Assembly: GCA_014729495.1 (NCBI GenBank)
Contig: WJJV01000006.1
Span: 1 to 38,636, forward strand
DNA from: Candidatus Woesearchaeota archaeon
GTDB lineage: Archaea > Nanobdellota > Nanobdellia > Woesearchaeales > UBA12501
DNA: 38,636 nucleotides
Direction: 5' to 3'
Below, one piece after another: positions 7,810 to 35,897 of this stretch; position 1 is the stretch's first letter, and each line of letters begins with the position of its first letter. The translations under genes and the position numbers were made by a program. Below the pieces are notes generated by a model, which did no database searches, was not told where the DNA came from, and saw only the letters and a list, made by a program, of their open reading frames with translations.

Positions 7810-7838
7810 TTTTTCACCTCATATTTATGATTTTATGT

Positions 7839-8372: not shown

Positions 8373-8389
8373 CCTCTTTTTTGATTATT

Positions 8390-9567: not shown

Positions 9568-10362
9568 ATGTATCAAAAACTAGACTTATCTGATGTTTCT
9601 TGGAGCAAGAATGATATAAAGAATGCAATAAAGTTGCCTACTCATTTGACAGAAGATCTATCCCACTTCTTAGGGATACATTATGGGGATGGATACATGA
9701 AGGTACAGAAAAGAAGTAAAAGAATAGACTATAGGTTGATTTATAGTGGACATTCCATCAATGAACAAGATTGGTATGAAAATTACATCTCACATTTGAT
9801 TAAAAGATTATTCAATAAAGATGTAGTGCCAAGAAAGACCGTTAAGAACACAATAAGGATATATTTCTGCTCAAAAGCTATTATTGAATTCTTAAATAAG
9901 GCTTGTGAAGTTCCATACAGTCCAAAGATCAATATTAAGATTCCTTCAATAGTCTTAGAATCAGAAGAATTCTGCATTAAGAGTGCTTTCCTTAGGGGTT
10001 TAGCTGATACAGATTTTAGCCTTGTATTCAAAGGAAAATGCAAAAAATATTCTAACCACAAACCTACAATAGACCATAAGACATCAGATATTAGATTACA
10101 TGAAGATATCAAAAAGTTGTTATCAGATCTGGATTTCAATTTCTGTAGTGGAAGAACAAAGAATTTTAGGAAAGGTAAGGCTCATGACAGTTATTATATC
10201 CAGATTAATGGAAAAGAAAACTTGAAAAAGTGGATGAAGAATATAGGATTTTCTTCATCTAATCATCTAACAAAGTATGAAGTATGGAAGAAATATGGTT
10301 TTTTGGTGCCTAAAACAGATATACATAGAAGAAAGTCCTTATTAAAGATATTTGAGCCGTAA
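9568..10362 (+). CDS. free-standing double-motif LAGLIDADG homing endonuclease
   Basis: Two LAGLIDADG-type motifs (FLGIHYGDGYM and FLRGLADTDFS) lie ~100 aa apart. The coding sequence is markedly AT-rich, and the gene sits between two multi-intron tRNA genes. Confidence 0.8.
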   Translation: MYQKLDLSDVSWSKNDIKNAIKLPTHLTEDLSHFLGIHYGDGYMKVQKRSKRIDYRLIYSGHSINEQDWYENYISHLIKRLFNKDVVPRKTVKNTIRIYFCSKAIIEFLNKACEVPYSPKINIKIPSIVLESEEFCIKSAFLRGLADTDFSLVFKGKCKKYSNHKPTIDHKTSDIRLHEDIKKLLSDLDFNFCSGRTKNFRKGKAHDSYYIQINGKENLKKWMKNIGFSSSNHLTKYEVWKKYGFLVPKTDIHRRKSLLKIFEP

Positions 10363-16020: not shown

Positions 16021-18810
16021 ATGGAATACTCAGAGCTTGCAAAAGTCTATGAACAGCTTGAGTCAACCACAAAAAGGCTTGAGAAAACATGGATAATATC
16101 AGGATTTCTGAAGAAAGCTGTTAAGAGCAGCTCAGGCACTGACAAGAATGAGATTTACATGTTGAGCATGCTGCTGCAGGGAAGGGTTTTTCCCCCATGG
16201 GATGAGCGCAGGCTTGGTGTTGCTGCAAGGATGATAATCAAGGCAGTGAGCGTTGCCACTGGAGCAGATGCTTCTGGAATAGAATCAGAATGGAAGGACA
16301 TAGGAGATATAGGAAAGGTTGCAGAGAAACTAGTCAGCTCCAAAAGGCAGACCACACTTTTCTCCCAGGCGCTCAGTGTTGAGAAGGTATTCAGCAATCT
16401 TCAGAAGCTGCCATCTCTTGAAGGCCAGGGCTCTGTTGACCAGAAGATACAGCTGATAGCAGAGCTTCTTACAAGTGCTGAACCTATTGAAGCAAGGTAT
16501 ATTGTGCGTACAGTCCTTGAGGATCTCAGGGTTGGGGTTGCTGACGGCACACTGAGGGATGCGATTGTCTGGGCTTTCTTCAGCGACAGCATCAGCATAA
16601 ACTATGATGAGGAAAAGAAGACAATCAACCCTGATGACAGGGAGGAATACAACAAGTATGTGGATGCTGTGCAGTCTGCTTATGATGTCTGCAATGACTT
16701 CTCAAGAGTCATAGAATCAGCAAGGTCTGGAGGGCTTGAGGCTATCAGGAAGATAGGCCTTGATGTGGGAAAGCCAATAAAAGTCATGCTCTACCAGAAG
16801 GCCACAGGAATAGAGAATGCATTTGAGAGAGTGGGAAAGCCTGCTGCATTCGAGTACAAATACGATGGATTCCGATGCATTACAGGACATACTCCAATAT
16901 ATGTCTACAAAAAAGGATTGATATCTGTTAAAGACGTCAAAAAAGAGGATCTTGTTTTGTCTCATAAGGGATATTTCAGGAGAGTTGAAGCAGTAAATAA
17001 AAGAAGAATAGACAAAAAAGAAAGATTATTTAAGATTCAATCTTTCCTTGGGAATCAATTTAGGATATCAGAGGGCCATAAGATTCTTGTAGAAAGGCAC
17101 GGAAAGGTTAGGTGGGTTAACTCTGAGAGTCTTACCAGAACTGATCATGTTGTATTTCCAATACCAAGATTCAGGATCAAAGACCAGCCTGCTGAGAAAG
17201 AGCTTGTTCTCAAGAATGCTTCCAATTATTCAAAATCAATCAAGATTTCCAATGACTTCTTTAGGTTCCTGGGATACTGGATTGGCGATGGGTTCACAAA
17301 TGACTACCACAATACAGAAAGAGTTGGTTTAGTCTTCAATAAGAACGATAAGAATAAGATCAATAAGTATTCCAATATAATCCAAAGAGATATCAAGATA
17401 GACAGGATAACCCAAAGCAGACAGAGAGGCATGATATCCCTTTATTGGAGGGATAAACCTTTAAGAATATGGCTTTCCACTAATTTCCGGAGGGAATGGA
17501 AAGGTAAAATGATTCCAGATTGGTTTTATAATATCTCCAAATCCCAGTTTCTGGCCTTTCTTGAGGGGTGGACTGAATCTGATGGCCATACAGATTCAGC
17601 CGGAAGAACTTCAATAACAACTAAAGAGAGAGATCTTGCAATGTTTGCTCAACTGATCGGGTTGAAGCAGGGTATCATAATTGCACTAAAAAAAATAAGG
17701 ATTTATGGAAAGACATACTATAAGCTGATTATTTTAAAGTCAGAGAAGCATTATAAACTCAGAAGCGATTATCTAGCTGTTAAAATATTAAAATATGAAG
17801 AAATCAAGTATCCTGATCCAAGGACAATGCTTTATAATATCCAGGTTAAAGGTGATAAGAGTTACTGTACAACTCTTCTTTCTCTTCATAACTGCCAGAT
17901 ACACAAAAACAACCCTGAAATAAAGATTTACACAAGAAGGCTGGAGGATGTGACAAAGCAGTTTCCTGAAGTAAAGAAGTATGTTGAGGAGAATATAAAA
18001 GGAGAGGGATTCATCCTGGACTCAGAGGCTGTGGGTTATGATCCCAAGACAGGAGAGTATCTTCCTTTCCAGAGCATAAGCCAGAGGATAAAGAGAAAGC
18101 ATAACATAGATGAGATGGCAGGAAAGTACCCTGTTGAGCTAAACATATTTGATGTTGTCAGCTATGAAGGAAAGAACATGATGAAAGAACCTTTCAGGAA
18201 GAGAAGAGAGCTTATAGAGAGCATAGTGACAGAAGAGCCTAAAAAGATTGTGCTGGCAAAGCAGATAATAACAGACGACCCTGAAGAGGCAGAGAGGTTC
18301 TATAAGGAAAGCCTGAACGCCGGAGAGGAAGGAGTCATGGCAAAGAATCTTGATGGAGCCTACAAGCCAGGAAGCAGGGTGGGCTTTGGTGTCAAGATAA
18401 AGCCGGTCATGGAGACCCTTGACCTGACTATTGTAGGAGCAGAATGGGGAACTGGCAAGAGAAGCGGATGGCTGAGCTCATTTGTCCTGGCATGCAGGGA
18501 TGACTCAGGAGAGTTCTTTGAGATAGGCAAGGTAGGCACAGGCATAAAGGAGCTTGAAGGAACAGGAGTGACATTTGATTACCTCACTGAACTGCTCAAG
18601 CCATTGGTAATTGATGAGAAAGGCAGGCAGGTAAGGATAAAACCTTCTGTTGTTGTTGAGATAAACTATGAGGAGATCCAGAAATCACCTACATACTCAT
18701 CAGGATTTGCGCTGAGATTCCCCAGGCTGATAAAGCTCAGGGAAGACAGAGGGCCTGAGGATGTGTCATCAATCTCTTTCATTGAAGAGCTGTATTATGG
18801 CCAGAAATGA
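16021..18810 (+). CDS. lig: ATP-dependent DNA ligase (archaeal Lig1 type) containing a 339-aa intein
   Basis: The N-terminal DNA-binding domain is followed by motif I, split as FEYKYDGFR | intein | CQIHK. Downstream are FILDSEAV, EGVMAK, the OB-fold and LRFPRLIKLREDR. The extein length of 590 aa is typical. Confidence 0.9.
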   Translation: MEYSELAKVYEQLESTTKRLEKTWIISGFLKKAVKSSSGTDKNEIYMLSMLLQGRVFPPWDERRLGVAARMIIKAVSVATGADASGIESEWKDIGDIGKVAEKLVSSKRQTTLFSQALSVEKVFSNLQKLPSLEGQGSVDQKIQLIAELLTSAEPIEARYIVRTVLEDLRVGVADGTLRDAIVWAFFSDSISINYDEEKKTINPDDREEYNKYVDAVQSAYDVCNDFSRVIESARSGGLEAIRKIGLDVGKPIKVMLYQKATGIENAFERVGKPAAFEYKYDGFRCITGHTPIYVYKKGLISVKDVKKEDLVLSHKGYFRRVEAVNKRRIDKKERLFKIQSFLGNQFRISEGHKILVERHGKVRWVNSESLTRTDHVVFPIPRFRIKDQPAEKELVLKNASNYSKSIKISNDFFRFLGYWIGDGFTNDYHNTERVGLVFNKNDKNKINKYSNIIQRDIKIDRITQSRQRGMISLYWRDKPLRIWLSTNFRREWKGKMIPDWFYNISKSQFLAFLEGWTESDGHTDSAGRTSITTKERDLAMFAQLIGLKQGIIIALKKIRIYGKTYYKLIILKSEKHYKLRSDYLAVKILKYEEIKYPDPRTMLYNIQVKGDKSYCTTLLSLHNCQIHKNNPEIKIYTRRLEDVTKQFPEVKKYVEENIKGEGFILDSEAVGYDPKTGEYLPFQSISQRIKRKHNIDEMAGKYPVELNIFDVVSYEGKNMMKEPFRKRRELIESIVTEEPKKIVLAKQIITDDPEEAERFYKESLNAGEEGVMAKNLDGAYKPGSRVGFGVKIKPVMETLDLTIVGAEWGTGKRSGWLSSFVLACRDDSGEFFEIGKVGTGIKELEGTGVTFDYLTELLKPLVIDEKGRQVRIKPSVVVEINYEEIQKSPTYSSGFALRFPRLIKLREDRGPEDVSSISFIEELYYGQK
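16876..17892 (+). mobile_element. intein with a LAGLIDADG homing-endonuclease domain in ligase motif I
   Basis: It begins with Cys (CITGHTP) and ends with LSLHN, followed by the +1 Cys of CQIHK. Internal motifs are FLGYWIGDGF and FLEGWTESDGH. The composition is AT-rich relative to the exteins. Confidence 0.85.
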
Positions 18811-23149: not shown

Positions 23150-23540
23150 TATACATCAGCAATAACAATGGAAGTCAAGATATATTTATTATTATGGCAA
23201 CAACAACATCGGATAATGTAATATTCTATCTATGTTGGCAGCAGCAACAACTTTGGATTCGTACACGGTCAAATGATAATATTTTAAGTTAATAACGGCA
23301 ACAACAGAAAATGCTTTGCATTTTCTTAGTTGCAAAAGCTCTGCATTTGCAACAACAATATTGCCAGCAGACGGCCATGCTCACTTTGTTCGCATGTCCT
23401 ACTCGGCACCCCGGAGGGGAAACAGGAAATCAAAGATTTCCTTAGTTGCGCTCGCTTCGCTCGGCAACCATCCCCCGCCTCGTCTGCGGCATTGTTGTTG
23501 CCTGGAATATCCTTCTGCTGCCTGACTAAATCCAAAAGAA
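23150..23540. repeat. inner repeat block B, inverted homolog of 15490-15885
   Basis: It shares ggcagcagcaacaac.ttggattcgtacacggtc and gcaacagaaaatgctttgcattttcttagtt.caaaagc...gcatttg.aacaacaa with the reverse complement of block A. Confidence 0.75.
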
Positions 23541-23543
23541 AAC

Positions 23544-23995
23544 GCCACCTCGCTGTGGTCAGATTTGCAGCGCTTGTCAGCGAGGCTAGGAGTATGTTGC
23601 AATTGAATAAACTAAAAGGAATAGCCACCTCTCCGTGGTCGGGTTCTTTGCGCTTATCGGAGAGGCTAGGAGTTTAAATGTTCTGAAAAATCACTTAAAG
23701 CCATTGCCACCTCGCCAACATAGCATTAGCAGCATCTTATTGGCAAGGCTAGGAGAAGAGTACAATACAATCTTCTTAAAGACATTGCCACCTCTCCGAC
23801 ATAGGGATAGCAGCAACTTATCGGAGAGGCTAGGGAAAGAGTGCAATGCAATCCCAAAAAATCCATTGCCACCTCTCCGACATCAGGATAGCAGCATCTT
23901 ATCGGAGAGGCTAGGAATACTAAAGATAAACTTTCCATATAGACTTTAGCCACCTCTCCGTGGCCGGATTTGCAGTGCTTGTCAGCGAGGCTAGG
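23544..23995 (-). repeat. periodic hairpin array B (6 units, starts 23544/23624/23706/23787/23868/23949)
   Basis: 47-48-nt hairpins of the form gccacctc[gc/tc]c...gcagc...g[gc/ga]gaggctagg at an 80-82 bp period. They lie directly 3' of the minus-strand island (stop at 24072). The inter-hairpin segments are also homologous to each other. Confidence 0.85.
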
Positions 23996-24071
23996 AGAAA
24001 ACTCAGAATTATCCACAAAAAGCAAGATACAATTAATCAGAAAAAGCTTGGATTTCATAAACTAACTTCTT

Positions 24072-25169
24072 TCAGCTGCATCCCACATCCATCTCTTCGT
24101 TTTCTGCATAAGGATAGATTATATTTGCATGGAACTCATCCACTCTGAACGGAAATGGATCTGCCTCTTCAGGATCATCTGATATGCCAGTGTAATTGTA
24201 CAGGTTTCCTCCAGACTCCTTGTTGGATCGCCTGCACATGCCAGGGAACAATGGATCAAACTCATCTGCAAAGTACTGATAGTCTGCATAGCTCTTGTCC
24301 AGGTAAGGGTCTATACCCAGCTCTGTCTGCAAAGTGTCCAGCATCTCCTTTGACACAAGGGACTCTATGCCGCAGCAGGCTGAAGGGCTCAGGTTGCCTT
24401 CAAACCGCATAAGGAAGCTTGGAGCTGACTTGTTCTGGTATATGTAAAGGCCATTGTCTATGACTGTCTGCATGCCTGTCAGGCCTTGATCCTCAAGATC
24501 TATTCCTGACCTGTTTATATGCCTGACAACAATCCTGTTGGTCGCTATGGATATAAGAGGATCCTCAACACCATCCAGCTTAAGGATAGTGCTGACCTGC
24601 ACCTGAGGCCTCACTATTGACATAACTCCAGGGCTGGTGAGATTGTATCCCATTATCATGCTCACATTCACTGTCCATGCTCCTGGCTGGTAGATCCTGA
24701 TTGAAGTAAGATTGTATCTTATGATTATGTTCATCTGCTCTTGGGATATGTTAGTGAGGTTATCAAGCCATGTTGAGATATTGAGGCCTTCCATGCCTGG
24801 AAGACCCACATCCACTCCAAGATTATTTCTTATTGTTCCGTTCATTATTGACTGCTCAAGCACAGCAGTTATATTCTCTATGCGAAAATCAACACCCTCA
24901 TCAACTTTCTTTGATACAACAAACTCTGTTATGCTGTCAAATGACTTATGGGTGAGAGCGAACAAGGCTCTTGGGACATAGACCTTCTCAAAGTTCTCTG
25001 CAAAGTTATTGACAGCTGTCACCCTTACCTGAGCTCTTTCTGCGCGCTCCCTGAATGACAGAAAGTCCTGTGACGAGAAGTACATCATGAAAAGAGAGCC
25101 TATGAGCACAGCTGAGAGGGTGAAGAATATGGCCTTTTTCCTGAGCTCTGCCCTGCTGTTCACTGCCAT
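24072..25169 (-). CDS. pilin-like extracellular protein (365 aa) with a class-III-type N-terminus
   Basis: ELRKKA-IFFTLSAVLIGSLFMMYF is a basic residue plus small residue followed by a hydrophobic helix. There are at least 10 N-x-S/T sequons. The start overlaps the upstream gene end by 10 nt. Confidence 0.55.
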   Translation of the reverse strand: MAVNSRAELRKKAIFFTLSAVLIGSLFMMYFSSQDFLSFRERAERAQVRVTAVNNFAENFEKVYVPRALFALTHKSFDSITEFVVSKKVDEGVDFRIENITAVLEQSIMNGTIRNNLGVDVGLPGMEGLNISTWLDNLTNISQEQMNIIIRYNLTSIRIYQPGAWTVNVSMIMGYNLTSPGVMSIVRPQVQVSTILKLDGVEDPLISIATNRIVVRHINRSGIDLEDQGLTGMQTVIDNGLYIYQNKSAPSFLMRFEGNLSPSACCGIESLVSKEMLDTLQTELGIDPYLDKSYADYQYFADEFDPLFPGMCRRSNKESGGNLYNYTGISDDPEEADPFPFRVDEFHANIIYPYAENEEMDVGCS

Positions 25170-25687
25170 ACTCTCACCTCTGCAACAAAAGGAGGGGAAA
25201 GCTCTGTCTTGTTGTCCACAACAGCAACTATTGTCCTTGATGATACAAGTGATTCTGAGTTGTTCTGCTCCTCGCTCAGGGGGCTGATCTGGGTGTAGAC
25301 AACCCTTTCATCAATTATGAACTGGAAAGAATACTGGATGGGTGTGAGATTCTGGAGTATTACCTCAGAGAAATTCCTGAGAGATACATTATATGATCCT
25401 GGATCCTGCGTATCCTTGAGATGGAACAATGCCATCTGCTCCAGGATTGTGAGCTCATAATCAGTTATGTTTCTATTGTTTATGAGATGAAGAACAGAAG
25501 GATGGGATGAGAAATCCTTTACCTGTGTTGACTGCAGGAGGTCAATAGTGTCCTGCGCAAGGAAGTAAGGCTGTGTGACCTGTGTCTGGGTTGCCTCAGA
25601 GGACCATATAGCCAGAAAAATGACTACAAGGATGAACAGAGCCATCAATATATCCAGAGTGAAAAAATAACCTCTTTTTAGCATCAT
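25160..25687 (-). CDS. pilin-like protein (175 aa), KRG-YFFTLD prepilin-type N-terminus
   Basis: MMLKRG|YFFTLDILMALFILVVIFLAIW resembles type IV (pre)pilin signals, with a G followed by an FTL(D/E)-type helix. Several N-x-S/T sequons are present. The gene starts 9 nt after the stop of the giant gene. Confidence 0.55.
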   Translation of the reverse strand: MMLKRGYFFTLDILMALFILVVIFLAIWSSEATQTQVTQPYFLAQDTIDLLQSTQVKDFSSHPSVLHLINNRNITDYELTILEQMALFHLKDTQDPGSYNVSLRNFSEVILQNLTPIQYSFQFIIDERVVYTQISPLSEEQNNSESLVSSRTIVAVVDNKTELSPPFVAEVRVWQ

Positions 25688-25696
25688 AAACCATCA

Positions 25697-28600
25697 TCAT
25701 GACCAGGCAGTCACTATCATCTTGACAGGTCTGCCGTCTATATACACTATTCTTGTTGTCCTTATGACATCCTCTGCCTCAACTGACTCATTGAGCTCAA
25801 ACCTTGTCTTGTCCTCATCAATCTCAATCTGCTCTCCCTCGCAGCAGCGGTGCTTGATCAGAGGATTGGAAGTATCTCTGAGCAGGAGCCCCTGCTTGAC
25901 GCCTGCGCATGCTGGGTAAAGATCGCAGGTATTTCCTGCATCATCCTCAAATCCCCAGCAGTCAGCTATGCAGATATCTCCATCAAGGAGCGTACAGTCT
26001 GCTGTGCAGTCAAGGTTTATAGGGCATACATCATCAAAGTCAAGAGTGATTGTCTCACCCTGTGAGACATCTGAATAAGTAAGCTCTCTTGTGGAGCTTC
26101 CTGCATAAGATGCCCTCACAGATCCACTTCCAGAAGGTATCTCAAGAGAGTACTCTCCACTGTTGTCAGTTGTAGTTGACAAGCCTCCTGCTGTCACAGT
26201 AGCCCCTGGAAGAGGATTCTCTCCGCATGATACTGTTCCCTCAGCAATTGCTGTCTGACCTATGATTATTGTCGTGCTGTTAGGTATTCCATAATAGCCT
26301 CTTGCTGTGTCCCTTGGCCTGAGCATGACCTCATAAGTGCCGGTGGAGACTTCAGGCACACCCCATGTGAACTCAGTTCCCTGGACTCCAGGAGCTATGA
26401 CCTGGGCCAGTATGCCATCCTTGTACAGCTCAAGATCATACTCAATAGGATTGACTGATGACTGAGCAGACCATGTGAGCTCAAGATTAGTTCCCCTGGC
26501 CACAACAGTTCCGTCAAGAGGAGTATTGAATACAGCGAGACCGCAGTCAGCATCACCCACCCTGCTGTAAGGTATGCCCTCGCTGTAGAAGTTTCCTTCT
26601 CCACCTACGCAATACATATTGCCTCCTGCAGAGTCAATGATGCCACTTCTGTAGAAGTGGTTGAGGTATATCTCATTGCCTGTTGCTCCTGAAGCGAGAT
26701 TAAGGTCATTATAGTTCTCAAGCAGTGCTGCTGTTATTGTGTTGCCCGGCTTCTCTACCCTTATTCCTGTATCATAATCAGACACAGATATATTCCTCAG
26801 CACAATGCTCTCATTCCTTACAAGGATTCCTGTTCCTGAATCAGCAGAAGCAGATGCAAGCCTTGCTCCCTGGCCGTCTATTGTTATGCCAGTGTTGTTC
26901 GTTATTATGACTCCGTCATTGTCATCATCAGCTATGATGTAGAAGTATGGGCACAGCACAACATCATCATTAGCATAATAATTATTATTCTCATCAAGAG
27001 CTGTCTCAAGGTCAAGGCATGGCTCGCAGACATCACCTACACCATTTGCGTCTGTGTCAAGCTGGTCTGGATTTGAGTAGTTTGCATAGCAGTCTGCCTG
27101 AGCAGCAGGATCAGTCACATCAGCGCATGGCTCTGTAGGCACGCAGTTGTCAAAGCTGTCGCACACACCATCCTCATCCCAGTCAATGCACTGGCACTCT
27201 CCTGTATCATCATGGCATATCCTGAAATCATCTGTTGAGTCTGATATTCCTCTCACGCACTCTCCTGGAGCAAGGCAGCAGAAAGTGTCATCTGTGCCTG
27301 CTATAAGTGTCCAGTTGCCTCCCTTGCATACCTCATCAGAACTGCATTCTATGCCTCCATGGCTTGCGCAGCTCTCGCATGCTGCTGTGCATGCAGGATC
27401 AAGGCAGTCAATCTGGCCATTGCAGTCATTGTCTATGCCATCATAGCAGTTTGTCTCAAACATGCTGAGCCCGAACATTCCTGGATCATCGCAGTCTACA
27501 AGTCCGTCGCAATCATTATCTTTTCCGTCAACTATCTCAACAGCACCAGGATATACTCCTGGATCATCATCATTGCAGTCATTGCCTCCGAGAGGGCAGA
27601 GCTGGCTTCCAGTGTATGTCATTGTTCCATCACAGTAATCATCATTGTCATCATCGCATCCATTGTCTGCCAGACCATCACAGTCATTGTCCAGTCCGTC
27701 GCATATCTCTGCTTCAGGCTCGCACACGCAGAAAGGATATTCAGCGCAGTCTGGATCATCGCAGTTAGGGATTCCATCGCAGTCATCATCTATTGGATTG
27801 CCTTCTGAGTCATGATTGAGGCATGATTCATTCAGTATAAGATATTCATCACCTCCAAGAGAGACATATTCATCATCTGGAATAGCTGTTAGGGTATCAT
27901 AATAACCATATCTCCAGGTGATAGTAGAATTGAATATTGTATCTGAGCAGAGGGCTTTTGATCCTGTGCAGAAGGTCTCATTCAAAGGAGTCTCTCCTTC
28001 ACCGTCAAGTGTACTGGGATCACAGTCATCATCAATGCCATTGCATATGTCAGGCATACCAGGATTGATGCATATCGCGCATCCAGATGTATCATAAGAG
28101 CACTGGTCAACAGTTGAAGGGCATCCTGCAGGATCATCTGTCTTGTCATCATCGCAATCCTGCGCATCAGGAAATATGCAACCTCCTCTTAAGAAAGCAT
28201 CTGCTGAATCACCATAGCCGTCTCCGTCAAGATCAGTGCACTGGCATGCTACAGTTGAATTTAAAAAAGATGTATCAGATGATGCCCAAAGTATCTCATA
28301 GACTGGATCAGCCCAGGTTATGCTGCCTAAGTAAGGTCCATAATTGAGACCTTCAACAATGCTTACTTTCTCTCCAAGCCTGTTGCCGTCTATGTCTATC
28401 CTCTCAAAGTAGAGGTTTCCGCCATAATTATATGTGCTGTACACAACTCCAAAGTATTCTCCATTCCATTCAACACCCTGAAGCTCCTGAAGCCCATAAG
28501 CAGTATCGCTTGTGAAGTCCACAAAGTAATCATCAACAACATTCTCTCCAGACATTGGAATCAGGTTTCCATCCATGTCAAAGAGTGCATACATCACCCT

Positions 28601-30382
28601 GATATAGTTCCTTGGAGAGTATCTTGTGGTGAACAGGGCATAAGCATTCTCTTCAGGAATCCATATTATCTGTGGCTTAGGATTTCTTGTTGAATCTATT
28701 GTATCAAGCACTATAAGATCCTCAGAATCAAATACTGCTGGAGCTGAGTTTCCATCACCATCCATATCTATGGGGTTTCCTGCTGCATCTATGGCAGTGT
28801 ATAGGATCTCATTATTGTATCTTGTCCTCCTGTCTCTCCAGACAAGAGCATACTCTCCCTCTGCAGTCCCATCTCCATCCCTGTCAATGTCAGGATTCCA
28901 GACAAGGTCAGGGTATTCAGATTCATAATCATTATATGTTATCCTTGCATCAGAACTTCCGCATGAACCAAATCCGAAATGGAGGTCCTCCGCATTAGTG
29001 AGATCGCTGTTCTCAGGATGCGACTCAACGCAAACAATCCCAGGATCTGCAGCAGGATCATCTTTAGCTGTTGCTTCTGTACCCCAATCATAAGGGAAAT
29101 ATCCTGAAGAATCATCACCACCTATCTTATTGCATTCCTGCCAGTCGCATTCAGCAATATCTCTTCCATCCACAAGCCCGTCGCAGTCATTATCATAACC
29201 ATCAAAGCAGTCCTCAGGGATTGAGGAACAATACTTGCATCCTATATCAGCAGAGCAGTCCTCATCATCGCAGTCAACAAATCCGTCGCAGTCATCATCA
29301 ATATAGTTTCCGCATACCTCAGCACTGCACAAGCCTGACTCCAGGATAACGCACTGATGATTGCTGACAACCTCAACATCATAAGCCATTATCCCCGGGA
29401 TCTCTTTGAGAGTGTCTGCTCCGCACTCAACCATTCCGCTGGAATGTATGAGGCACCTGTAATCACTTATCAATACAGGCGACACATCAATAGCATCAGT
29501 AACACCTGTATCTTCAGGTGTCCTGTCCCAGCAGGAAACTGTTCCATCAGACAGCACAGCGCATTTTGGTGAGACTTCTAATGCATCTGTGATGCCTTCT
29601 ACATAAGCAGGAGACTCCCATATGGTCACATAGTTCTTTCCCCAGCACTTCACAGCACCATAAGCTAGCTTAGCGCATGTGAAAAATCCTGAGGATGACA
29701 CTTCAACAGCATGCTCAACATCAATAACAGGCTCTGCTTTTGGGTGAGGATCCCAGTCCTGGACTCCCTGGCCAAGATTATAATCCCTGTTCCTTCCCCA
29801 GCAGGCAACAGTATAGTCTGGAAGCAATGCGCAGCTGTGGTCATTGCCTACAGCAATATCAATAGCTGATATAGGATTGTCAGACTGGTCAATAACCTGC
29901 ACAGGAGAATTCCTGTTCTCTCCAGATGTTCCATCACCAAGCTGGCCGAATGCATTGTATCCCCAGCAGTACACAGGGCTTCCGTCAGACATATCGCCGT
30001 CATCAACAAGAGCACAGGTATGGTAATGGCCTGCCTCAACCTGAAGAACACCTGATAATGCACTTACCTGCAATGGATCAGCATTCGTGAATGAAGAGTA
30101 ACCAACACCCAGCTGTCCGAGATTGCCTCTTCCCCAGCACCATAATGTCTTGTCATCCTTTATTGCGCAGGTGTGGTCTGTGCCAACTGCAATATCAACA
30201 GCATCAGCAATTCCAGAGACCTCAACAGGAGCATCGCTGGCATCAGTGCTGCCATCTCCCAGCTGGCCATAATCATTGCTTCCCCAGCAGGCCATGTTGC
30301 TCTGCGCACTGGCCAGACCCATACAAAGCACAGCCATGACTACAATAACCATCCACATTCCGGGTCTCTTTGCTTTGTTCAT
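25697..30382 (-). CDS. giant secreted multidomain protein (1561 aa): RCC1-like propeller, MopE-like Cys motifs, W-x-G repeat propeller, TSP3-like repeats, right-handed beta-helix, CarboxypepD_reg-like domain
   Basis: The ATG at 30382 gives MNKAKRPGMWMVIVVMAVLCMGLASAQS, a signal peptide. The track start at 30397 is TTG. CWG..GQLGDG repeats occur at least four times. Other motifs are DNDCDG / DCDD..PGA.E.C.G.DDDCD, DWDEDGVCDSFDNC...NPDQLDTDANGVGDVCE, NNTGITIDGQGARL...GILVRN...GIRVE, and GATVTAGGLSTTTDNSGEYSLEIPSG. Confidence 0.8.
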   Translation of the reverse strand: MNKAKRPGMWMVIVVMAVLCMGLASAQSNMACWGSNDYGQLGDGSTDASDAPVEVSGIADAVDIAVGTDHTCAIKDDKTLWCWGRGNLGQLGVGYSSFTNADPLQVSALSGVLQVEAGHYHTCALVDDGDMSDGSPVYCWGYNAFGQLGDGTSGENRNSPVQVIDQSDNPISAIDIAVGNDHSCALLPDYTVACWGRNRDYNLGQGVQDWDPHPKAEPVIDVEHAVEVSSSGFFTCAKLAYGAVKCWGKNYVTIWESPAYVEGITDALEVSPKCAVLSDGTVSCWDRTPEDTGVTDAIDVSPVLISDYRCLIHSSGMVECGADTLKEIPGIMAYDVEVVSNHQCVILESGLCSAEVCGNYIDDDCDGFVDCDDEDCSADIGCKYCSSIPEDCFDGYDNDCDGLVDGRDIAECDWQECNKIGGDDSSGYFPYDWGTEATAKDDPAADPGIVCVESHPENSDLTNAEDLHFGFGSCGSSDARITYNDYESEYPDLVWNPDIDRDGDGTAEGEYALVWRDRRTRYNNEILYTAIDAAGNPIDMDGDGNSAPAVFDSEDLIVLDTIDSTRNPKPQIIWIPEENAYALFTTRYSPRNYIRVMYALFDMDGNLIPMSGENVVDDYFVDFTSDTAYGLQELQGVEWNGEYFGVVYSTYNYGGNLYFERIDIDGNRLGEKVSIVEGLNYGPYLGSITWADPVYEILWASSDTSFLNSTVACQCTDLDGDGYGDSADAFLRGGCIFPDAQDCDDDKTDDPAGCPSTVDQCSYDTSGCAICINPGMPDICNGIDDDCDPSTLDGEGETPLNETFCTGSKALCSDTIFNSTITWRYGYYDTLTAIPDDEYVSLGGDEYLILNESCLNHDSEGNPIDDDCDGIPNCDDPDCAEYPFCVCEPEAEICDGLDNDCDGLADNGCDDDNDDYCDGTMTYTGSQLCPLGGNDCNDDDPGVYPGAVEIVDGKDNDCDGLVDCDDPGMFGLSMFETNCYDGIDNDCNGQIDCLDPACTAACESCASHGGIECSSDEVCKGGNWTLIAGTDDTFCCLAPGECVRGISDSTDDFRICHDDTGECQCIDWDEDGVCDSFDNCVPTEPCADVTDPAAQADCYANYSNPDQLDTDANGVGDVCEPCLDLETALDENNNYYANDDVVLCPYFYIIADDDNDGVIITNNTGITIDGQGARLASASADSGTGILVRNESIVLRNISVSDYDTGIRVEKPGNTITAALLENYNDLNLASGATGNEIYLNHFYRSGIIDSAGGNMYCVGGEGNFYSEGIPYSRVGDADCGLAVFNTPLDGTVVARGTNLELTWSAQSSVNPIEYDLELYKDGILAQVIAPGVQGTEFTWGVPEVSTGTYEVMLRPRDTARGYYGIPNSTTIIIGQTAIAEGTVSCGENPLPGATVTAGGLSTTTDNSGEYSLEIPSGSGSVRASYAGSSTRELTYSDVSQGETITLDFDDVCPINLDCTADCTLLDGDICIADCWGFEDDAGNTCDLYPACAGVKQGLLLRDTSNPLIKHRCCEGEQIEIDEDKTRFELNESVEAEDVIRTTRIVYIDGRPVKMIVTAWS

Positions 30383-30393
30383 TCTATCTATTA

Positions 30394-30810
30394 TCAAGTA
30401 TTGATCTCTCTGGGAAGAACGCTCTTGACAAACTCAAGAGCTGACTTTGTCTTCTCTTCAGAAACCTCTTCTGCTCCATATACAGCTAAATTTCTCAGTT
30501 TCCTCAGTTCATCAAAATTATCCAGCATCCCAGAATCCATTTCAGAATAATTCTCTTTCAGATAAGCTATCAGGACTTCATGCGAGTAAGGCTTGTACCC
30601 ATCTGCGCAAAGAACTGCCTGCGCTGCTTCCCTCAGGCTTTCATAGACATCCTCAAATATGAATCCCGAATTATCATCTGAGAGGGTCTGTGATTCAATA
30701 TATTTCAGCCTATCCTCTGCCTTTTTCATAAGCGAAGCTGCCATCTCATTGTCTGGCTGCTGTTTCACTGCTTTTTTCTCTTTCATGTAAAACTCAAAGC
30801 TTCTTATCAT
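30394..30810 (-). CDS. HEPN-domain protein (toxin partner of MNT)
   Basis: A ~138-aa helical protein with ...LREAAQAVLCADGYKPYSHEVLIAYL... and ELRKLRNLAVYG (the R-x-x-R-N-x-x-x-Y region typical of PF05168-type HEPN). It overlaps the upstream nucleotidyltransferase gene by 4 nt. Confidence 0.65.
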   Translation of the reverse strand: MIRSFEFYMKEKKAVKQQPDNEMAASLMKKAEDRLKYIESQTLSDDNSGFIFEDVYESLREAAQAVLCADGYKPYSHEVLIAYLKENYSEMDSGMLDNFDELRKLRNLAVYGAEEVSEEKTKSALEFVKSVLPREINT

Positions 30811-31334
30811 TTTATCAGTCTCAAAAAACCATGGAGCGTGATTCCATTCGCAAGATTGTTCCTGAACTCCTTGCTGGCTTTGTCAAGCTTTATCTTATGG
30901 ATGTTTATCCTCCTTTTCAGGCTTTTCTCGTATTTTGCTGTGTTGATGTCTTTTTTCTTGTCTGTTATGACTGCAATGTCAATGTCTGATCTGCCTGTGT
31001 CCTCTCCTCTTGCATAGCTGCCGAAAAGCACTACTGCTTCTGGCAGGTACTTCTCTGCAATCTCCCTGATCACTCCGCAGCTTGATATGCTGTAGATGTT
31101 TGATGCTCTTTTCAGGGCAACAAACTCTTTGTTGTCAGTATTTGCCAGGTAGTTGTCTGTCACCCTGGTCTTTTCCTTTGAAACAAGGTCCTGTTTCACA
31201 AGCTTCCTCAGGATCTTCAGGACTCCTGCAGGCGACAGGCCTGTGAGCCTTGCTATCTCCCTCAGGTGGAAGCTTGTGTCTGGATTCTGCAGGAACATAT
31301 CCATGACCCTGTCTGTGTTTGTTTTTGTGAACAT
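30807..31334 (-). CDS. wHTH-fused minimal nucleotidyltransferase (MNT antitoxin-type)
   Basis: The N-terminal HLREIARLTGLSPAGVLKILRKLVKQDLV is a wHTH. VVLFGSYARGEDTGRSDIDIAVI matches the GS-x10-D-x-D NTase motif. Confidence 0.75.
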   Translation of the reverse strand: MFTKTNTDRVMDMFLQNPDTSFHLREIARLTGLSPAGVLKILRKLVKQDLVSKEKTRVTDNYLANTDNKEFVALKRASNIYSISSCGVIREIAEKYLPEAVVLFGSYARGEDTGRSDIDIAVITDKKKDINTAKYEKSLKRRINIHKIKLDKASKEFRNNLANGITLHGFLRLIK

Positions 31335-31500: not shown

Positions 31501-32304
31501 TTATCTGCAGCAGGTTATAAATATTCCTTCTCTGCACCGGTTACCCATTCCTCCTCCAGCATGGCATTTCAGATTAATTTGTCCCGGCCATCTGTCTTGC
31601 ACACCTATATACATATATTCTCCTTCACTGTGCCAGGTATCTCTAAAAAATGCATAGTCCACATCAAGCAATACAGGATGTGTGGATGGACACTGCAAAT
31701 TTATAGTATCACCATTTGAATTAAATTCATAACCTCCTGAAGTCAGATCATTCTCAACACTTTTGCTTCCACTATTTGCAGGTTTTCCATAAAACAGAAC
31801 ATCACATCTGCCTGGCATGAAGTTTCCTGAGACAGCAAAATCTCCATTAACTCTGGTATTACCACCTAAAACAAGATCTGAAGTTGAATCTGAATTGGAG
31901 ATAGCACCAGATACATGCAGTCGGTCATCTATAGTCACTATATCCCCATCAGGATTTAATACTGAACCACTAACCTCAATATTTCCACCTACAGCAGCAT
32001 CATTAGTGATATCCAGGCCATTAGTGCCTTCAACTCTTGTGTAACCTGTGACAACAAGCTGGTCATCTACTATAACATTGCCTGCTGGGTCTGCATTGGC
32101 TACTGTTCCTGTCAGCTTGAGGTCATCATCCACTGTCACTCCAGTGCCTGACTTGCCTGTTATCAGGTCAGTGAACAGTGTCCCATGCGATGGCTGGTCT
32201 GCACTGTATGTCTGCGCAATCACAAAACCAGCTGCTCCGATCATCACAATCACTGCAATCGTCAACCATAAGTGTTTTTTTAAAATGTTTATTTCGATTT
32301 TCAT
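31501..32304 (-). CDS. signal-anchored protein with beta-helical [VI]xGx repeats and a Cys-rich C-terminal domain (267 aa)
   Basis: The N-terminus MKIEINILKKHLWLTIAVIVMIGAAGFVIAQ is paralogous to that of the next gene. Periodic repeats are present (LKLTGTV, LVVTGYTRVEG, IEVSGSV, LHVSGAI, TRVNGDFAVSGNF). Eight Cys residues sit in the last 100 aa. Confidence 0.6.
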   Translation of the reverse strand: MKIEINILKKHLWLTIAVIVMIGAAGFVIAQTYSADQPSHGTLFTDLITGKSGTGVTVDDDLKLTGTVANADPAGNVIVDDQLVVTGYTRVEGTNGLDITNDAAVGGNIEVSGSVLNPDGDIVTIDDRLHVSGAISNSDSTSDLVLGGNTRVNGDFAVSGNFMPGRCDVLFYGKPANSGSKSVENDLTSGGYEFNSNGDTINLQCPSTHPVLLDVDYAFFRDTWHSEGEYMYIGVQDRWPGQINLKCHAGGGMGNRCREGIFITCCR

Positions 32305-32317
32305 TTTTTATCACCTT

Positions 32318-32761
32318 TTATTGCATGCCTACTGCAATCCAATATATTTCTATAGGGTTGCTTTCACCTGGCTGCTGGATTATTGTGAAGCCAGTATTAG
32401 TGACATCTGTCAGATAGAAACCATAATAGATTCCGTCATATTCACTATTAGTCTCAAAATCAGTGAATGCATCTTGAACCATCCAATCTAAGGGATCTCC
32501 TTCTAATGTTGGCTTTTTCCAGTATATCTTTATCAGAGGCTTGTCTGAGTAGGTATTCTGGAAAGTAACTGCAGTAGCTGAGTCAGCCCCCCCTGTGGTC
32601 ACAGTGCCGGACTCAATAGGGATATCACTGATCTCACTCCAGGGATGCCCCTGTGTGTTTCCTACTGCCTGAGCATAGGCAAATACTCCTATCATAATCA
32701 CTGCAATAGTAATCATCAAAGCCCAAAAATGCTTTTTTTCAATATTTATTTTAAATTCCAT
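32318..32761 (-). CDS. signal-anchored H-type-lectin-like protein (147 aa)
   Basis: The N-terminus is MEFKINIEKKHFWALMITIAVIMIGVFAYAQA. SGTVTTGG...TAVTFQNTYSDKPLI ... DVTNTGFTII...IEIYWIAVG resembles the H_lectin pattern (sG.v...vtF..F...P.v ... nvt.tGF ... v.WiA.G). This is recalled from memory, not searched. Confidence 0.5.
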   Translation of the reverse strand: MEFKINIEKKHFWALMITIAVIMIGVFAYAQAVGNTQGHPWSEISDIPIESGTVTTGGADSATAVTFQNTYSDKPLIKIYWKKPTLEGDPLDWMVQDAFTDFETNSEYDGIYYGFYLTDVTNTGFTIIQQPGESNPIEIYWIAVGMQ

Positions 32762-32770
32762 TTTCTCACC

Positions 32771-35700
32771 TCAACTGCTGTACTCACAGCATATTGTCTT
32801 TGTATAAGGGCTTGCTGTGTCTCCTGCACAGCCAGCCACATGCGAATCATCATTCTTGTATACTGTTGCCACGCATGTTCCTGTATCACATGTCCCGCTG
32901 CCAGCATATTCATGGCATGTTATTGCACCTGTGTCAGCTGCCATGCAGATGTCACTGTCATAATATCCTTGTGTAAGGCTCACATGGCTGTTGTCTGTTC
33001 CATACTTTGACAGCACAAATTCATCTTCTGCTCCTGAGCAGTCAGTTGCAGTAAGACCAGCCTCAGCCAGATTGCAGCAGACATTGTTATCATAATATCC
33101 TGCAGTGCCTATATGAGAGTCATACAAGCCATACATCGTGAACAATGTTGCCTCAGTGCATGCTTCCTGACCTATTGAGCAGACCAATCCTGTCTCAATG
33201 ACACAGTCTGCAGTGCATCCGTCTCCATTCAGCTTGTTCCCGTCATCGCACTCCTCTCCTGAGTCAACAACACCATCTCCGCAGGAAGGCAGTGTGCAGT
33301 CAGTCCTGCACTCATCAGGAGCAGTGTCGCTGTTTGCAGTCCCATTATCACACTCTTCTATGAACTCGACATCTCCGTTACCGCAGACAGGCATTCCCAC
33401 TGCGCAGCATATCTTAGTGTTATAATCATCGCAGTCTCCGATGTGGGCATCTGACTCTGAGGTCACTGAAGCTACGCAGGAGTATCCCTCGTCACAGTCT
33501 CCAGTATTGTAATCGCATATCACAGAGCCTCTGCTTGTCTCCTGGATTGACATGCATGCAGGATTCGTGAATCCTCCTTCAGCAGGCACTTCTACATGAG
33601 CATCATCCTCTGAAGATAGCTCAAGGAAAGCATCTCCATTATCGCATGTTGTGTCCAGAGTAGCTCCTTCTACCTTGCAGCATATCCTGTTTGCGAAATC
33701 TCCAGTATTAGGCAGTGCTGCATGAGCATCAGTCATTGATGACTTCTTCAGCACTTCAATGAATCCAAATTCATCAGGGCATGTTGCCTGCATATGCACG
33801 CATTCAAATCCCCACACTCCTTCAAGAGTGCATTTTCCTGAGCAGCCGTCAAAATATTCAGTGTTGCCGTCATCGCACTGCTCTCCGCCTTCAACCTTTC
33901 CGTTTCCGCATATCTCTTTCTCCTCTGCAAAAAGCATCATCTGGTAGAATATGCCATTAGGAAGAAGCGATGTGTTCCAGAAGTAATCATGATATTGTAT
34001 CTTGATGTCTGTTATGCTTAGCACTCCTGACTGAGCCCTGATCTCAACAGGAATCTGGCATATCTCATCTATGTCAGCATCGCATGAATCATTGATATAA
34101 TCATTGAGCAGTCCAGAAAAGTCAGCCATAGACTGCCTTCCATTGAATTCTCCTGCAGCTCCCCACTCATAGTATCCATCCATCCCTATATCTATTCCAG
34201 GATTAACAGCTCTGCTTCCTGAAACATCAAAAGTAGCCAGATATACTTTAGATGCCTTTGGCACATAAAGATACTGGATCGGCGCATTGCAGTAAGCGCT
34301 GCCTTCACAGTCAGGATCCTCACAATCCCTCAGCCCGTCACAGTCATTGTCAAGGCCGTCATTGCATGATTCTTCTGCAGGCTCGTAGGCTAGAATTGAA
34401 GAGATATCATCCTGCCATCCTGCTGTACCCACACAGGTCTGCAGGCTTCCAGCACATACACCTTTCTGGAGACTATTAAGAGGCGGTTCTTCTCCTGAGC
34501 CATCTGCTGTTGAAGGGTCGCAGTCATCATCTATGCCATTGCATATTTCAGAAGCTCCTGGATGTACTGATGCATCTGAATCATCGCAGTCCTCTTCCTG
34601 ATATAAACAGCTGACTCTCTCCTCTTCTGTTCCTGTCCCATAACCATCCCCATCTATATCCTCACATGTAAGACACCCTAATTTAGTGAAATAAACACCA
34701 GGAACTGAGTCTTCATTAGCCCATACAAAAATATACTCAGAACCTGTCCAGACAAAGGATGATCTAAAAAATACAGGCGAATCACTTCTTCCGTTCCCTA
34801 TATATAATTCGCTCTCAATGGGCTGTTCATTCTCATCAGCTCTGCTGAAATATATATCTGTTTCATCACCAGAAGGGATAGATCTTGATATATAATATTC
34901 AACTCCATTCCACTTAACTTTACCAATATTAAAGCCAAGGATTTCATCGCTAAGTATGTTTCCGTCCATATCAAGCTTGATAAGGTGAGGATTACCATCA
35001 ATAACACCATTACCAAATACATAAATACTTGAGTCTCTGATTATATTACTAAGTCCTGAAAGCCTATAATCTATAGCCTGTTTTTTAAGCTCTATTGTGC
35101 CGCTCTGGCTGATTCTTGCAAAATAGATAGTGAAATAAGGGCTGTCTTCATTCCATATAACAACATATTTTGACCCTGTCCAGATTACGCTTGACCCAGC
35201 TGAGTATTCTGGAGTGTCTGACACAAGAATCCTTGACCCAATAAGATTTCCCTGGGCATCAGCTCTCTGAAGATACACTTCAAAGTTATCAGGTGTCGCC
35301 TCTTCTATATAAGTGAAAGCATACTCTTGGCTATCAGGATTCCATATGACAGATTCCAGATAAGCTGATTTTGTGTTTGATGTAATCTGCTTTGCATCAA
35401 CAATCTTATTGCCCTGAGCATCCACTGCAGCAAAAGCCACCTGATCAGGATAACCACCACTGCCGCAAATATTAGTAGGATGATAATTCTGTTCTCTCCA
35501 GAACACACCATAGCTTGATCCTGTCCATCGAATAAAGGAACTGCTGAAGGAGCACTCTACATCATCTATCTTTGTCGCAGAAAGCAGGTTAGCATTCTCA
35601 TCAAATCTTCCAAGATATATTCTTGCACCAAGAAACTCCTCCTGAGTATAGTTCAAATAGGATATTCCCAACTCCAAGTCATCAGGATTCCATACAGCAT

Positions 35701-35875
35701 AAGGAAGAAATTTCTCAAACGAATAAGATGTATCTACAATATTAACAGTAGGAATCACTTTAGAGACATGACCCTCAGAACAGTAATCCTCCTGGGCATT
35801 AGAGATGGCACTGCTCAAGAGCACAATCATAACTGCCAAAACCATCCACAATCCGATTGTTCTTGATTTTTTCAT
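32771..35875 (-). CDS. giant secreted protein (1034 aa): W-x-G-x-x-Y repeat propeller, MopE-like motifs, DUF4215 (Myxococcus Cys-rich) repeats, six D-[AS]-H...CC repeats
   Basis: The signal peptide is MKKSRTIGLWMVLAVMIVLLSSAISNAQ. Repeats include RWTGSSYGVFW, VIWNPDSQEYAF, VIWTGSKYVVIW, VKWNGVEYYI and FVWTGSEYIFVW. Other motifs are DCDDSDASVHPGASEICNGIDDDCD, CGNGKVEGGEQCDDGNTEYFDGCSGKC and CGDGVVDSGEECDDGNKLNGDGCTADC. Confidence 0.8.
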   Translation of the reverse strand: MKKSRTIGLWMVLAVMIVLLSSAISNAQEDYCSEGHVSKVIPTVNIVDTSYSFEKFLPYAVWNPDDLELGISYLNYTQEEFLGARIYLGRFDENANLLSATKIDDVECSFSSSFIRWTGSSYGVFWREQNYHPTNICGSGGYPDQVAFAAVDAQGNKIVDAKQITSNTKSAYLESVIWNPDSQEYAFTYIEEATPDNFEVYLQRADAQGNLIGSRILVSDTPEYSAGSSVIWTGSKYVVIWNEDSPYFTIYFARISQSGTIELKKQAIDYRLSGLSNIIRDSSIYVFGNGVIDGNPHLIKLDMDGNILSDEILGFNIGKVKWNGVEYYISRSIPSGDETDIYFSRADENEQPIESELYIGNGRSDSPVFFRSSFVWTGSEYIFVWANEDSVPGVYFTKLGCLTCEDIDGDGYGTGTEEERVSCLYQEEDCDDSDASVHPGASEICNGIDDDCDPSTADGSGEEPPLNSLQKGVCAGSLQTCVGTAGWQDDISSILAYEPAEESCNDGLDNDCDGLRDCEDPDCEGSAYCNAPIQYLYVPKASKVYLATFDVSGSRAVNPGIDIGMDGYYEWGAAGEFNGRQSMADFSGLLNDYINDSCDADIDEICQIPVEIRAQSGVLSITDIKIQYHDYFWNTSLLPNGIFYQMMLFAEEKEICGNGKVEGGEQCDDGNTEYFDGCSGKCTLEGVWGFECVHMQATCPDEFGFIEVLKKSSMTDAHAALPNTGDFANRICCKVEGATLDTTCDNGDAFLELSSEDDAHVEVPAEGGFTNPACMSIQETSRGSVICDYNTGDCDEGYSCVASVTSESDAHIGDCDDYNTKICCAVGMPVCGNGDVEFIEECDNGTANSDTAPDECRTDCTLPSCGDGVVDSGEECDDGNKLNGDGCTADCVIETGLVCSIGQEACTEATLFTMYGLYDSHIGTAGYYDNNVCCNLAEAGLTATDCSGAEDEFVLSKYGTDNSHVSLTQGYYDSDICMAADTGAITCHEYAGSGTCDTGTCVATVYKNDDSHVAGCAGDTASPYTKTICCEYSS

Positions 35876-35897
35876 TGTCTCTTTTTTTCTTTGTTTC

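Follow-up and report, generated by a model that had tools for sequence, protein, structure and literature searches.

Archaeal type IV pili of clade 1 are encoded by loci with two TadC genes and at least five class III minor pilins, and the large DUF2341 proteins of such loci have been proposed to act as PilY1-like tip adhesins (Makarova et al. 2016, PMC4858521). A 2026 preprint (Sivabalasarma & Albers) places DPANN archaea among the holders of ‘system 1’ pili, and the same preprint mentions that type IV filament loci of archaea encode large adhesins. A lifestyle of attachment to other microbes is assumed for DPANN, and how they recognise and hold their hosts is largely unknown. Here, a stretch of 38,636 bp from a Candidatus Woesearchaeota archaeon (contig WJJV01000006.1) was analysed, which appears to represent the complete contig and is referred to as the window. 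Its minus strand carries the gene of a giant protein of 1561 amino acids (25697..30382), followed by the genes of two pilin-like proteins, named P1 (175 amino acids, 25160..25687) and P2 (365 amino acids, 24072..25169). We favour the explanation, at a probability of roughly 0.6, that the giant, P1 and P2 together constitute a satellite adhesin cassette belonging to a type IV pilus system of DPANN archaea (Woesearchaeota type). As part of this best explanation, P1 and P2 would, judging from their sequences, be paralogues of two conserved minor-pilin-like proteins encoded in canonical loci of that system. According to a groundwater study, DPANN genomes lack the components of type IV pili (preprint 10.1101/2020.05.14.094862); several Woesearchaeota metagenome-assembled genomes (MAGs) of that same study carry the P1/P2 loci described below.

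Gene order and prepilin-like signals

The giant gene was delimited from the ATG at MNKAK, since homologues begin at the equivalent M; the alternative start is a TTG at 30397, which would give a protein of 1566 amino acids (25697-30397). Pfam recognises N-terminal RCC1 repeats, MopE cysteine motifs and a CarboxypepD_reg domain near the end, in agreement with a sequence-only reading of this DNA that had described a 1561-amino-acid giant with an RCC1 propeller. Nine nucleotides (TGATGGTTT) separate the stop codon of the giant from the ATG of P1, and the P1 and P2 genes share 10 nt (ATGGCAGTGA), with a Shine-Dalgarno-like motif, GAGGTGAG, ahead of the P2 start; the coordinates thus confirm the spacing which that reading had reported for two open reading frames (ORFs) right behind the giant. 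Among related loci (numbered with the prefix L) the P1/P2 overlap amounts to 10 nt in L001 and L010, 4 nt in L004 and L007 and 13 nt in L008, while the two genes are separated by a 2-nt gap in L011. The automatic database call of P1 (P0029, 161 amino acids) begins at Met15 and thereby loses the signal described next; the longer start is supported by K4, G6, F8, F9, T10 and D12, which are invariant in homologues.

The N-terminus of P1 reads MMLKRG/YFFTLDILMALFILVV and that of P2 ..ELRKKA/IFFTLSAVLIGSLF, in which the slash marks the putative cleavage site from which positions are counted. The class III-like signal of P1 (MMLKRG/) together with its hydrophobic helix (YFFTLDILMALFILVVIFLAIWSSEA) is located at 25592..25687, and the corresponding signal (MAVNSRAELRKKA/) and helix (IFFTLSAVLIGSLFMMYFSSQD) of P2 at 25065..25169, both on the minus strand. 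A rule requiring [KR][GA] within the first 30 residues, directly followed by 20 residues with a mean Kyte-Doolittle hydropathy >1.6, was run on all 208 six-frame stop-to-stop ORFs of at least 60 amino acids in the window, and only P1, P2 and one spurious 69-amino-acid ORF, out of frame within the giant gene, passed it. In both proteins the residue at -2 is positively charged and that at -1 is small (K-R-G/ in P1, K-K-A/ in P2), a combination that is found family-wide, and both have a hydrophobic residue at +1 (Tyr in P1, Ile in P2) and a helix of about 20 residues starting from the cleavage site, the hydrophobic stretch behind K/R-K/R-G/A being approximately 22 residues long. Helices are predicted by AlphaFold2 (AF2) at residues 6-32 of P1 and from residue 12 of P2.

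Across 76 members of the P1 family, K/R is present at -3 in 74 and at -2 in 72, position -1 is occupied by G (61) or A (15), a hydrophobic residue stands at +1, positions +2 and +3 are F/Y in every member, and Asp stands at +6 in 74. The P2 family (n=66) has K/R at -3 in 63 members and at -2 in 65, G (42), A (22) or S (2) at -1, I/M/V/L at +1 and F/Y at +2 and +3, and an acidic residue is not among the common ones at +5 to +9; T at +4 was part of the pattern by which these sequences were selected, and T17 of P2 is invariant in a separate alignment. Median hydropathy over +1 to +22 is 2.39 in the P1 family and 2.08 in the P2 family. An acidic residue at +5 is typical of bacteria and optional in archaea. 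Neither protein carries one at that position, so that the FTL(D/E)-like element which had been ascribed to both applies to P1 with its acidic residue shifted to +6, and does not extend to P2, where no acidic residue is present at +5/+6. For archaeal prepilin peptidases the residues reported to matter are -2 (positive charge), -1 (small) and +1 (hydrophobic), and Glu+5 is missing from many archaeal substrates (PMC3387779). In sequence, P1 and P2 show the hallmarks of the class III (prepilin-type) signals of archaea, and the resemblance first noticed in the two N-termini is borne out by residues conserved throughout both families. Residues fixed at the start of a membrane helix would be unexpected for ordinary signal anchors.

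The number of N-x-S/T sequons in P1 is 6, compared to a mean of 1.5 after shuffling (P=0.001), and in P2 it is 12, compared to 3.1 (P<0.0002), which corresponds to an approximately 4-fold excess over chance in both proteins and bears out their earlier description as sequon-rich. Sequon density reaches 3.4 (P1) and 3.3 (P2) per 100 amino acids versus 0-0.4 in cytoplasmic proteins of the window, an enrichment that would fit extracellular archaeal glycoproteins. Sequons are not enriched in the giant (11 observed versus 10.7 expected), which contains 87 cysteines.

Neither P1 nor P2 has a match in Pfam or NCBIfam. The AF2 model of P1 (predicted local distance difference test score, pLDDT, 88.9) shows the N-terminal helix, followed by a small domain of helices and by a sheet, the last strand of which is formed by the C-terminal ..AEVRVWQ (residues 167-174); this C-terminal strand (..FVAEVRVWQ, 25163..25189, minus strand) is conserved at the extreme end of small as well as giant P1-like proteins. 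The model of P2 (mean pLDDT 67, core 80-93) predicts a long N-terminal helix followed by a three-stranded sheet. P2 contains an invariant PSFLMRFE motif (24399..24422, minus strand), followed by CCGIESL; in the underlying alignment A1 of 18 P2 sequences, S251, F252, L253, M254, R255, G267, E269 and S270 are invariant.

Pilus loci, the C-terminal module and the shared hairpin

The PSFLMRFE motif was used as the search pattern in a scan of GTDB species representatives, which recovered 111 P2 loci, 80 of which were kept; the locus counts given below are over 89 non-redundant loci. P2 belongs to a DPANN-wide family of approximately 310-390 amino acids, with homologues in Woesearchaeota- and Nanoarchaeota-type MAGs, and an exhaustive profile search of 1.84 billion cluster representatives (50% identity clusters) retrieved 1,907 representatives at E<=1e-3, 683 of them at E<=1e-30. 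The N-terminal domain of P1 was seen only in DPANN-type MAGs, some of them labelled Micrarchaeota, and a P1-like gene is present on chromosome OY970338.1. No P1 homologue was recovered from Methanococcales or Thermococcales, which gives no support for homology to the minor pilins of the Epd pilus. A word-indexed protein database, searched with a profile of the P1 N-terminus, yielded small or truncated proteins only and none of giant size; the giant P1-like forms reported below came from inspection of the loci.

A P1-like gene is located directly upstream of P2 in 71 of the 83 loci with enough upstream sequence. A T2SSE gene is present in 60 of the 89 P2 loci, and two T2SSF genes accompany it in most of these; of the 36 loci with at least 8 kb of flanking sequence on both sides, 28 have T2SSE within a distance of 10 kb. 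In the canonical loci (L002, L004, L006, L008, L010 and L011) the order of genes is a KaiC-like ATPase, two small QxSxE class III proteins, famC (a third pilin-like family of the pilus loci, with the N-terminus ..K[AS]Q/xW..D..), P1-like and P2-like, after which follow the T2SSE ATPase, two T2SSF platform genes of the TadC/ArlJ type and pilins of the type ..K(G/A)QAAMEFLMTYGWA..; QxSxE-type proteins and typical pilins were seen in the loci inspected. Members of both the P1 and the P2 family are regularly encoded alongside ATPase and platform genes, and such genes are absent from the window and its five closest relatives. MAG JAZDMC possesses a canonical locus (L010) in addition to a satellite P1-P2 pair (L043), for which T2SSE was undetected in 4.2 kb of upstream and 8.9 kb of downstream flank, indicating that the machinery can be supplied in trans.

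P1-like proteins occur in a small form of 160-240 amino acids (n=35) and a large form of 609-2033 amino acids (n=39). The large proteins of L002, L004, L005 and L006 begin as P1 does (BLASTP E 2e-12, 8e-13), and the large forms also end as P1 does (..VE[AVI]RVW.), with VWA, LamG or DUF2341 domains between the two ends (DUF2341 in L004 and L009); one such fused form lies at L002 6374-9106. As both ends are shared, P1 of the window can be regarded as the bare scaffold of a protein that elsewhere bears internal adhesin domains, as inserts of 450-1850 amino acids.

The adhesin-like part of the window is a separate chain. The last 250 amino acids of the giant (25700..26449, minus strand) constitute a C-terminal module, delineated by phmmer, which encompasses CarboxypepD_reg, a Cys-rich stretch and a terminal hairpin. 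Homologues of this module (phmmer E 1e-21 to 1e-169) are found in 19 ORFs of related loci, all with Sec-type signals and unrelated heads, and 396-1578 amino acids long where complete. In 17 loci the module ORF is located on the P2 strand upstream of P2: immediately upstream of P1 in window-type loci, and 0.9-2.9 kb upstream of P2 in pilus loci of the L008 type, one or two short famC genes lying between the module ORF and P1/P2 in L007 and L008. The module accompanies 17 of the 35 small P1 proteins and none of the 39 large ones (Fisher P=2e-7), which means that adhesin domains reside either inside P1 or in a separate Sec protein with the module. Because the module is situated upstream of small-P1/P2 pairs in 17 loci with differing heads, the link between the giant and P1/P2 is no accident of this contig.

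L001, the closest relative, shares with the window the gene order giant, P1, P2, diphthine synthase, FtsZ, nitroreductase and DNA ligase, and its giant has Kelch repeats in place of RCC1. At this same chromosomal site (upstream of dph5, ftsZ and DNA ligase), the constant elements are P1, P2 and the C-terminal module, and the order giant-P1-P2 is retained under heads that change from RCC1 (1561 amino acids) to Kelch (1499 amino acids) and to forms of 743, 548 and 760 amino acids. Such variation is the behaviour expected of a recognition surface. The RCC1-like beta-propeller head of the window giant (29633..30310, minus strand; Pfam RCC1 1.8e-38, WD40_RLD 4.5e-41, RCC1_2 7.6e-28) follows a signal peptide (MNKAKRPGMWMVIVVMAVLCMGLASA/QS, 30302..30382, minus strand) which ends ..GLASA/QS and, with the cleavage site placed by eye, looks to be of the Sec type, as do the hydrophobic N-termini of all homologues. 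A class III reading of the conserved G-[ML]-W-M N-termini of the giants was considered, and Sec was judged more likely, as their 16-19 hydrophobic residues are followed by A-x-A-like sites and K/R is absent at -2. No transmembrane segment or other visible anchor is present in the giant sequence.

The terminal 30 residues of the giant (..ESVEAEDVIRTTRIVYIDGRPVKMIVTAWS, 25700..25789, minus strand), predicted to form a beta-hairpin closing with ..TRIVYIDGRPVKMIVTAWS, are held in common with the C-terminus of famC. Comparison of the two by hhalign yields a probability of 96% (E 2.9e-9). A position-specific scoring matrix (PSSM) built from 47 famC tails gives 9-32 bits for the 19 module proteins, at least 23 bits for 17 of them and 23.1 for the window giant, whereas 2045 unlabelled ORFs score -28 on average (standard deviation 7.5, maximum 0). 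The relation surfaced only by PSSM and profile-profile comparison over the last 21-30 residues. There is no famC gene in the window. Where a locus encodes a Sec protein, famC is a 132-amino-acid form without the hairpin that ends ..NLSGTPCSQK, from which it follows that each locus has a single copy of the hairpin, carried by a pilin-like protein or by the giant. As a separate observation, two short famC-like genes occur where the Sec protein bears the hairpin (L007 8802-9200, L008 346-738 and a second paralogue); their products end ..NLSGTPCSQK and ..KLNxDGxxCRE, a terminal Cys being conserved in both, and the Sec proteins of the L007/L008 type end ..VVA[AV]CG and not ..W. The terminal Cys residues in short famC-like and Sec proteins hint at a disulfide that replaces the Trp-ended strand.

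Some further observations concern the set of loci itself. In NC_groundwater Woesearchaeota MAGs (L015-L044 and others) many loci are complete, having T2SSE, a pair of T2SSF genes and genes of the pilin-like type, and several genomes, e.g. JACPMX, JACPMS, JAGVXT and JAGVYA, contain two P2 loci. L014, L017, L019 and many others are titled ‘uncultured Methanosarcinales archaeon’ yet hold DPANN-type loci with Woesearchaeota-like synteny, and these titles look like generic or wrong taxonomic labels. In L002 a small pair, comprising a DUF3368 protein, taken to be PIN-like, and a 97-amino-acid protein, is inserted between P1 and P2.

Pilus cassette, membrane tether and other explanations

In the satellite cassette that we favour, P1 and P2 would enter the membrane and be trimmed by a prepilin peptidase encoded elsewhere, with cuts falling after Gly6 of P1 and Ala13 of P2. 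Machinery that is likewise encoded elsewhere would then build them, through their N-terminal helices, into a fibre resembling a pilus or into a short pseudopilus. The giant would be exported apart from them, through the Sec pathway, and would be held on a P1/P2 sub-complex, presumably at the tip, by its C-terminal module, the last 30 residues of which copy the famC hairpin. Binding would be done by the variable head, here the RCC1 propeller and the Cys-rich repeats. In other lineages a single polypeptide would perform this task, with VWA, LamG or DUF2341 inserts placed inside P1, ahead of its last strand. A bolder version, which we put forward only tentatively, is that the last 30 residues of the giant serve as a portable docking tag, a hairpin borrowed from famC which loads Sec-exported adhesins non-covalently, by strand addition, onto the P1/P2 complex, so that DPANN could swap host-recognition heads on one pilus scaffold in fused and split versions.

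Several results weigh against the pilus cassette. Pfam scans detect no T2SSE, T2SSF or peptidase A24 domain in the 38,636-bp window, as had already been remarked for prepilin peptidase, ATPase and platform genes from the sequence-only reading, and 8 of the 36 well-flanked loci have no T2SSE nearby, among them all five window-type loci in which the giant's module lies directly upstream of P1 (L001, L012, L013, L014 and L034). Profiles of the P1 and P2 families found nothing in a PDB sequence search up to E=5. Foldseek searches of the PDB gave a best E of 0.18 for P1 and of 4e-3 for P2, the latter to NTF2-like folds at a TM-score of 0.13, and yielded no significant match and no pilin or pseudopilin for either protein. 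Pilin-likeness accordingly lies in the N-terminal signal and helix and not in a recognisable globular fold; since the globular domains of pilins are very diverse, this mismatch weakens the pilin assignment and does not exclude it. Tyr at +1 of P1 and F/Y at +2/+3 may fall outside the residue sets of FlaFind, and a strict run may be negative. BLASTP of the last 200 amino acids of the giant against famC revealed no similarity, confining the link to 30 residues. The earlier suggestion that the giant is displayed on a type-IV-pilus-like fibre is partly supported, by the linkage of both families to pilus loci and by the module upstream of 17 small-P1/P2 pairs, and no assembly genes lie in the window itself.

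The absence of assembly genes from the window and the five window-type loci is also what would be seen if P1 and P2 stayed in the cytoplasmic membrane, uncleaved or cleaved and unpolymerised, and tethered the giant to the cell surface with no fibre, similar to what has been proposed for the Sulfolobus bindosome, in an organism that may lack other anchoring systems. This is the main rival, which we consider unlikely. The globular folds of P1 and P2, dissimilar to known pilins, agree with it, and the giant, having no anchor of its own, would require a partner. Ordinary anchors, however, are not expected to keep invariant residues at a fixed distance from the K/R-G/A junction across hundreds of diverged homologues, both families are core and ordered parts of loci with ATPase and platform genes, and the MAG with a canonical as well as a satellite copy makes provision of the machinery in trans possible.

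Minor pilins were drawn near the pilus base by Makarova et al. (PMC4858521), and piliation of M. maripaludis requires minor pilins; P1 and P2 might accordingly prime or cap a pilus at its base and be unrelated to the giant, their adjacency reflecting a secreted-protein operon only. Canonical loci that keep P1/P2 with no obvious adhesin domains, for example those with a small P1 and no giant C-terminal module (L010, L011), are in line with such a role. It sits poorly with the strict complementarity between inserts in P1 and a module protein beside small P1 (P=2e-7), with a famC hairpin on the giant, and with the 9-nt gap, the overlap and the conserved giant-P1-P2 order under changing heads, and we rate it as distinctly improbable. 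That the prepilin likeness is fortuitous, P1 and P2 being unrelated secreted or membrane glycoproteins and their pilus neighbours a coincidence of compact DPANN genomes, is disfavoured and is the least credible of these explanations by far: no curated family model or solved structure backs the pilin assignment, yet T2SSE occurs within 10 kb, in fixed order, in 28/36 well-flanked loci across MAGs of three lineages (Woese-, Pace- and Nanoarchaeota), and unmistakable pilins of the QxSxE and KGQAAMEF types are encoded in the same loci.

Under the satellite cassette, three unannotated families mark a DPANN pilus system and are linked, through two architectures that can replace each other, with giant surface proteins that change fast. 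These proteins represent concrete candidates for host-attachment factors, together with a 30-residue candidate docking element, and the loci supply a rule for locating such adhesins in metagenomes, namely to search upstream of small P1/P2 pairs.

Neighbouring genes and comparison with known systems

The remainder of the window contains a number of other features. Further secreted proteins are encoded upstream of the giant on the same strand (31501-38507), comprising one of 869 or more amino acids with two LamG_3 domains and DUF4215, one of 1034 amino acids with MopE and DUF4215, one of 147 amino acids with a weak H-type lectin match and one of 267 amino acids; the PSSM detects no terminal hairpin in them. 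The 1034-amino-acid protein and the giant have near-identical signals (..G[ML]WMV[IL].VM..), and L001 encodes an equivalent protein of 1081 amino acids and an FG-GAP protein. Between the giant surface-protein genes, at 30394-31334, Pfam identifies a HEPN / nucleotidyltransferase (MNT-type) pair with an N-terminal helix-turn-helix. On the other side of the cassette, between P2 and the diphthine synthase gene, a tandem array of about six units of 80-81 nt (23529-23998) is present, each unit containing an imperfect hairpin (GCCACCTCTCCG...CGGAGAGGCTAGG). Rfam gives no match for the array, which is absent at the same place in L001, L012, L013 and L014, where P2 abuts dph5; interpretation as clustered regularly interspaced short palindromic repeats (CRISPR) was rejected, the array consisting of tandem hairpin copies with no unique spacers.

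The ATP-dependent DNA ligase (16021-18810) has 929 amino acids versus 585-610 in syntenic relatives, and its extra stretch, which starts at FRC/ITGHT and ends at ..SLHN/CQIH (slashes marking its borders), looks from its sequence like an intein with a homing-endonuclease-like middle. A free-standing LAGLIDADG ORF (9568-10362) lies close to a PHP-domain gene, and the match of a Hel308-like helicase ORF (11597-13186) begins at Helicase_C, so that the N-terminal motor domain seems to be missing or split off. Many DPANN are said to lack lipid synthesis, which makes notable a run of archaeal lipid genes at 6765-9049 for CDP-archaeol synthase (CarS), a divergent PAP2 protein, a CDP-alcohol phosphatidyltransferase and a phosphatidylserine decarboxylase. 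Rfam assigns a transfer RNA (tRNA) of 128 nt to 3766-3893 which ARAGORN misses, making an intron probable, and the tRNA-Glu at 4076-4163 is long (87-88 nt).

Among described systems, the pili of clade 1/system 1, such as the Epd pilus of Methanococcus maripaludis, come closest. The related DPANN loci resemble them in having one T2SSE ATPase, two TadC/T2SSF genes, several non-major class III proteins and large DUF2341/LamG proteins, and L002, L004, L006, L008 and L011 have a clade 1-like architecture by gene content. They differ in that P1, P2 and famC match no Pfam/NCBIfam model and, at the sensitivity used, were recovered only from DPANN-type MAGs, and in that the window represents a satellite cassette with no machinery.

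The logic of the cassette is also that of PilY1 with PilV/W/X/FimU, the priming or tip complex of bacterial type IVa pili, an analogy previously drawn by Makarova et al. for the archaeal DUF2341 proteins (PMC4858521). The comparison with PilY1 made in the sequence-only reading is justified as regards architecture, namely a large adhesin with a Sec signal, a variable N-terminal and a conserved C-terminal part and an operon shared with minor pilins, and does not extend to homology: sequence and domains are unrelated, with no PilY1 or PilC Pfam match on the giant, the RCC1 propeller is N-terminal whereas that of PilY1 is C-terminal, the conserved part of the giant consists of CarboxypepD_reg, a Cys-rich stretch and the hairpin, and neither the sequences nor the predicted folds of the minor pilins are related. 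The modular pilin PilB of Streptococcus sanguinis (PMC8179133) is paralleled by the large P1-like proteins of L002, L004, L005 and L006, which join a pilin-like N-terminus to VWA/LamG domains. In the DPANN proteins the insert interrupts the P1 scaffold, behind the N-terminal domain and ahead of the last strand, and is not an appendage as in PilB, and the adhesin of the window is a separate, Sec-exported chain.

P2 recalls GspK, the tip pseudopilin of type II secretion, in being larger than the other pilin-like subunits and in that it alone lacks an acidic residue at +5/+6, and it has no sequence or fold similarity to GspK. For a tip subunit of the GspK type no acidic residue is expected, there being no partner above it. 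By analogy, the missing acidic residue of P2 would fit such a subunit. The concept that archaeal clade 1 pili have class III proteins of large size and adhesin-like character dates from 2016 (PMC4858521). New, as far as literature searches show, are the three DPANN-specific families, the alternative between fused and split forms, the shared hairpin and the satellite cassette with its swapping heads.

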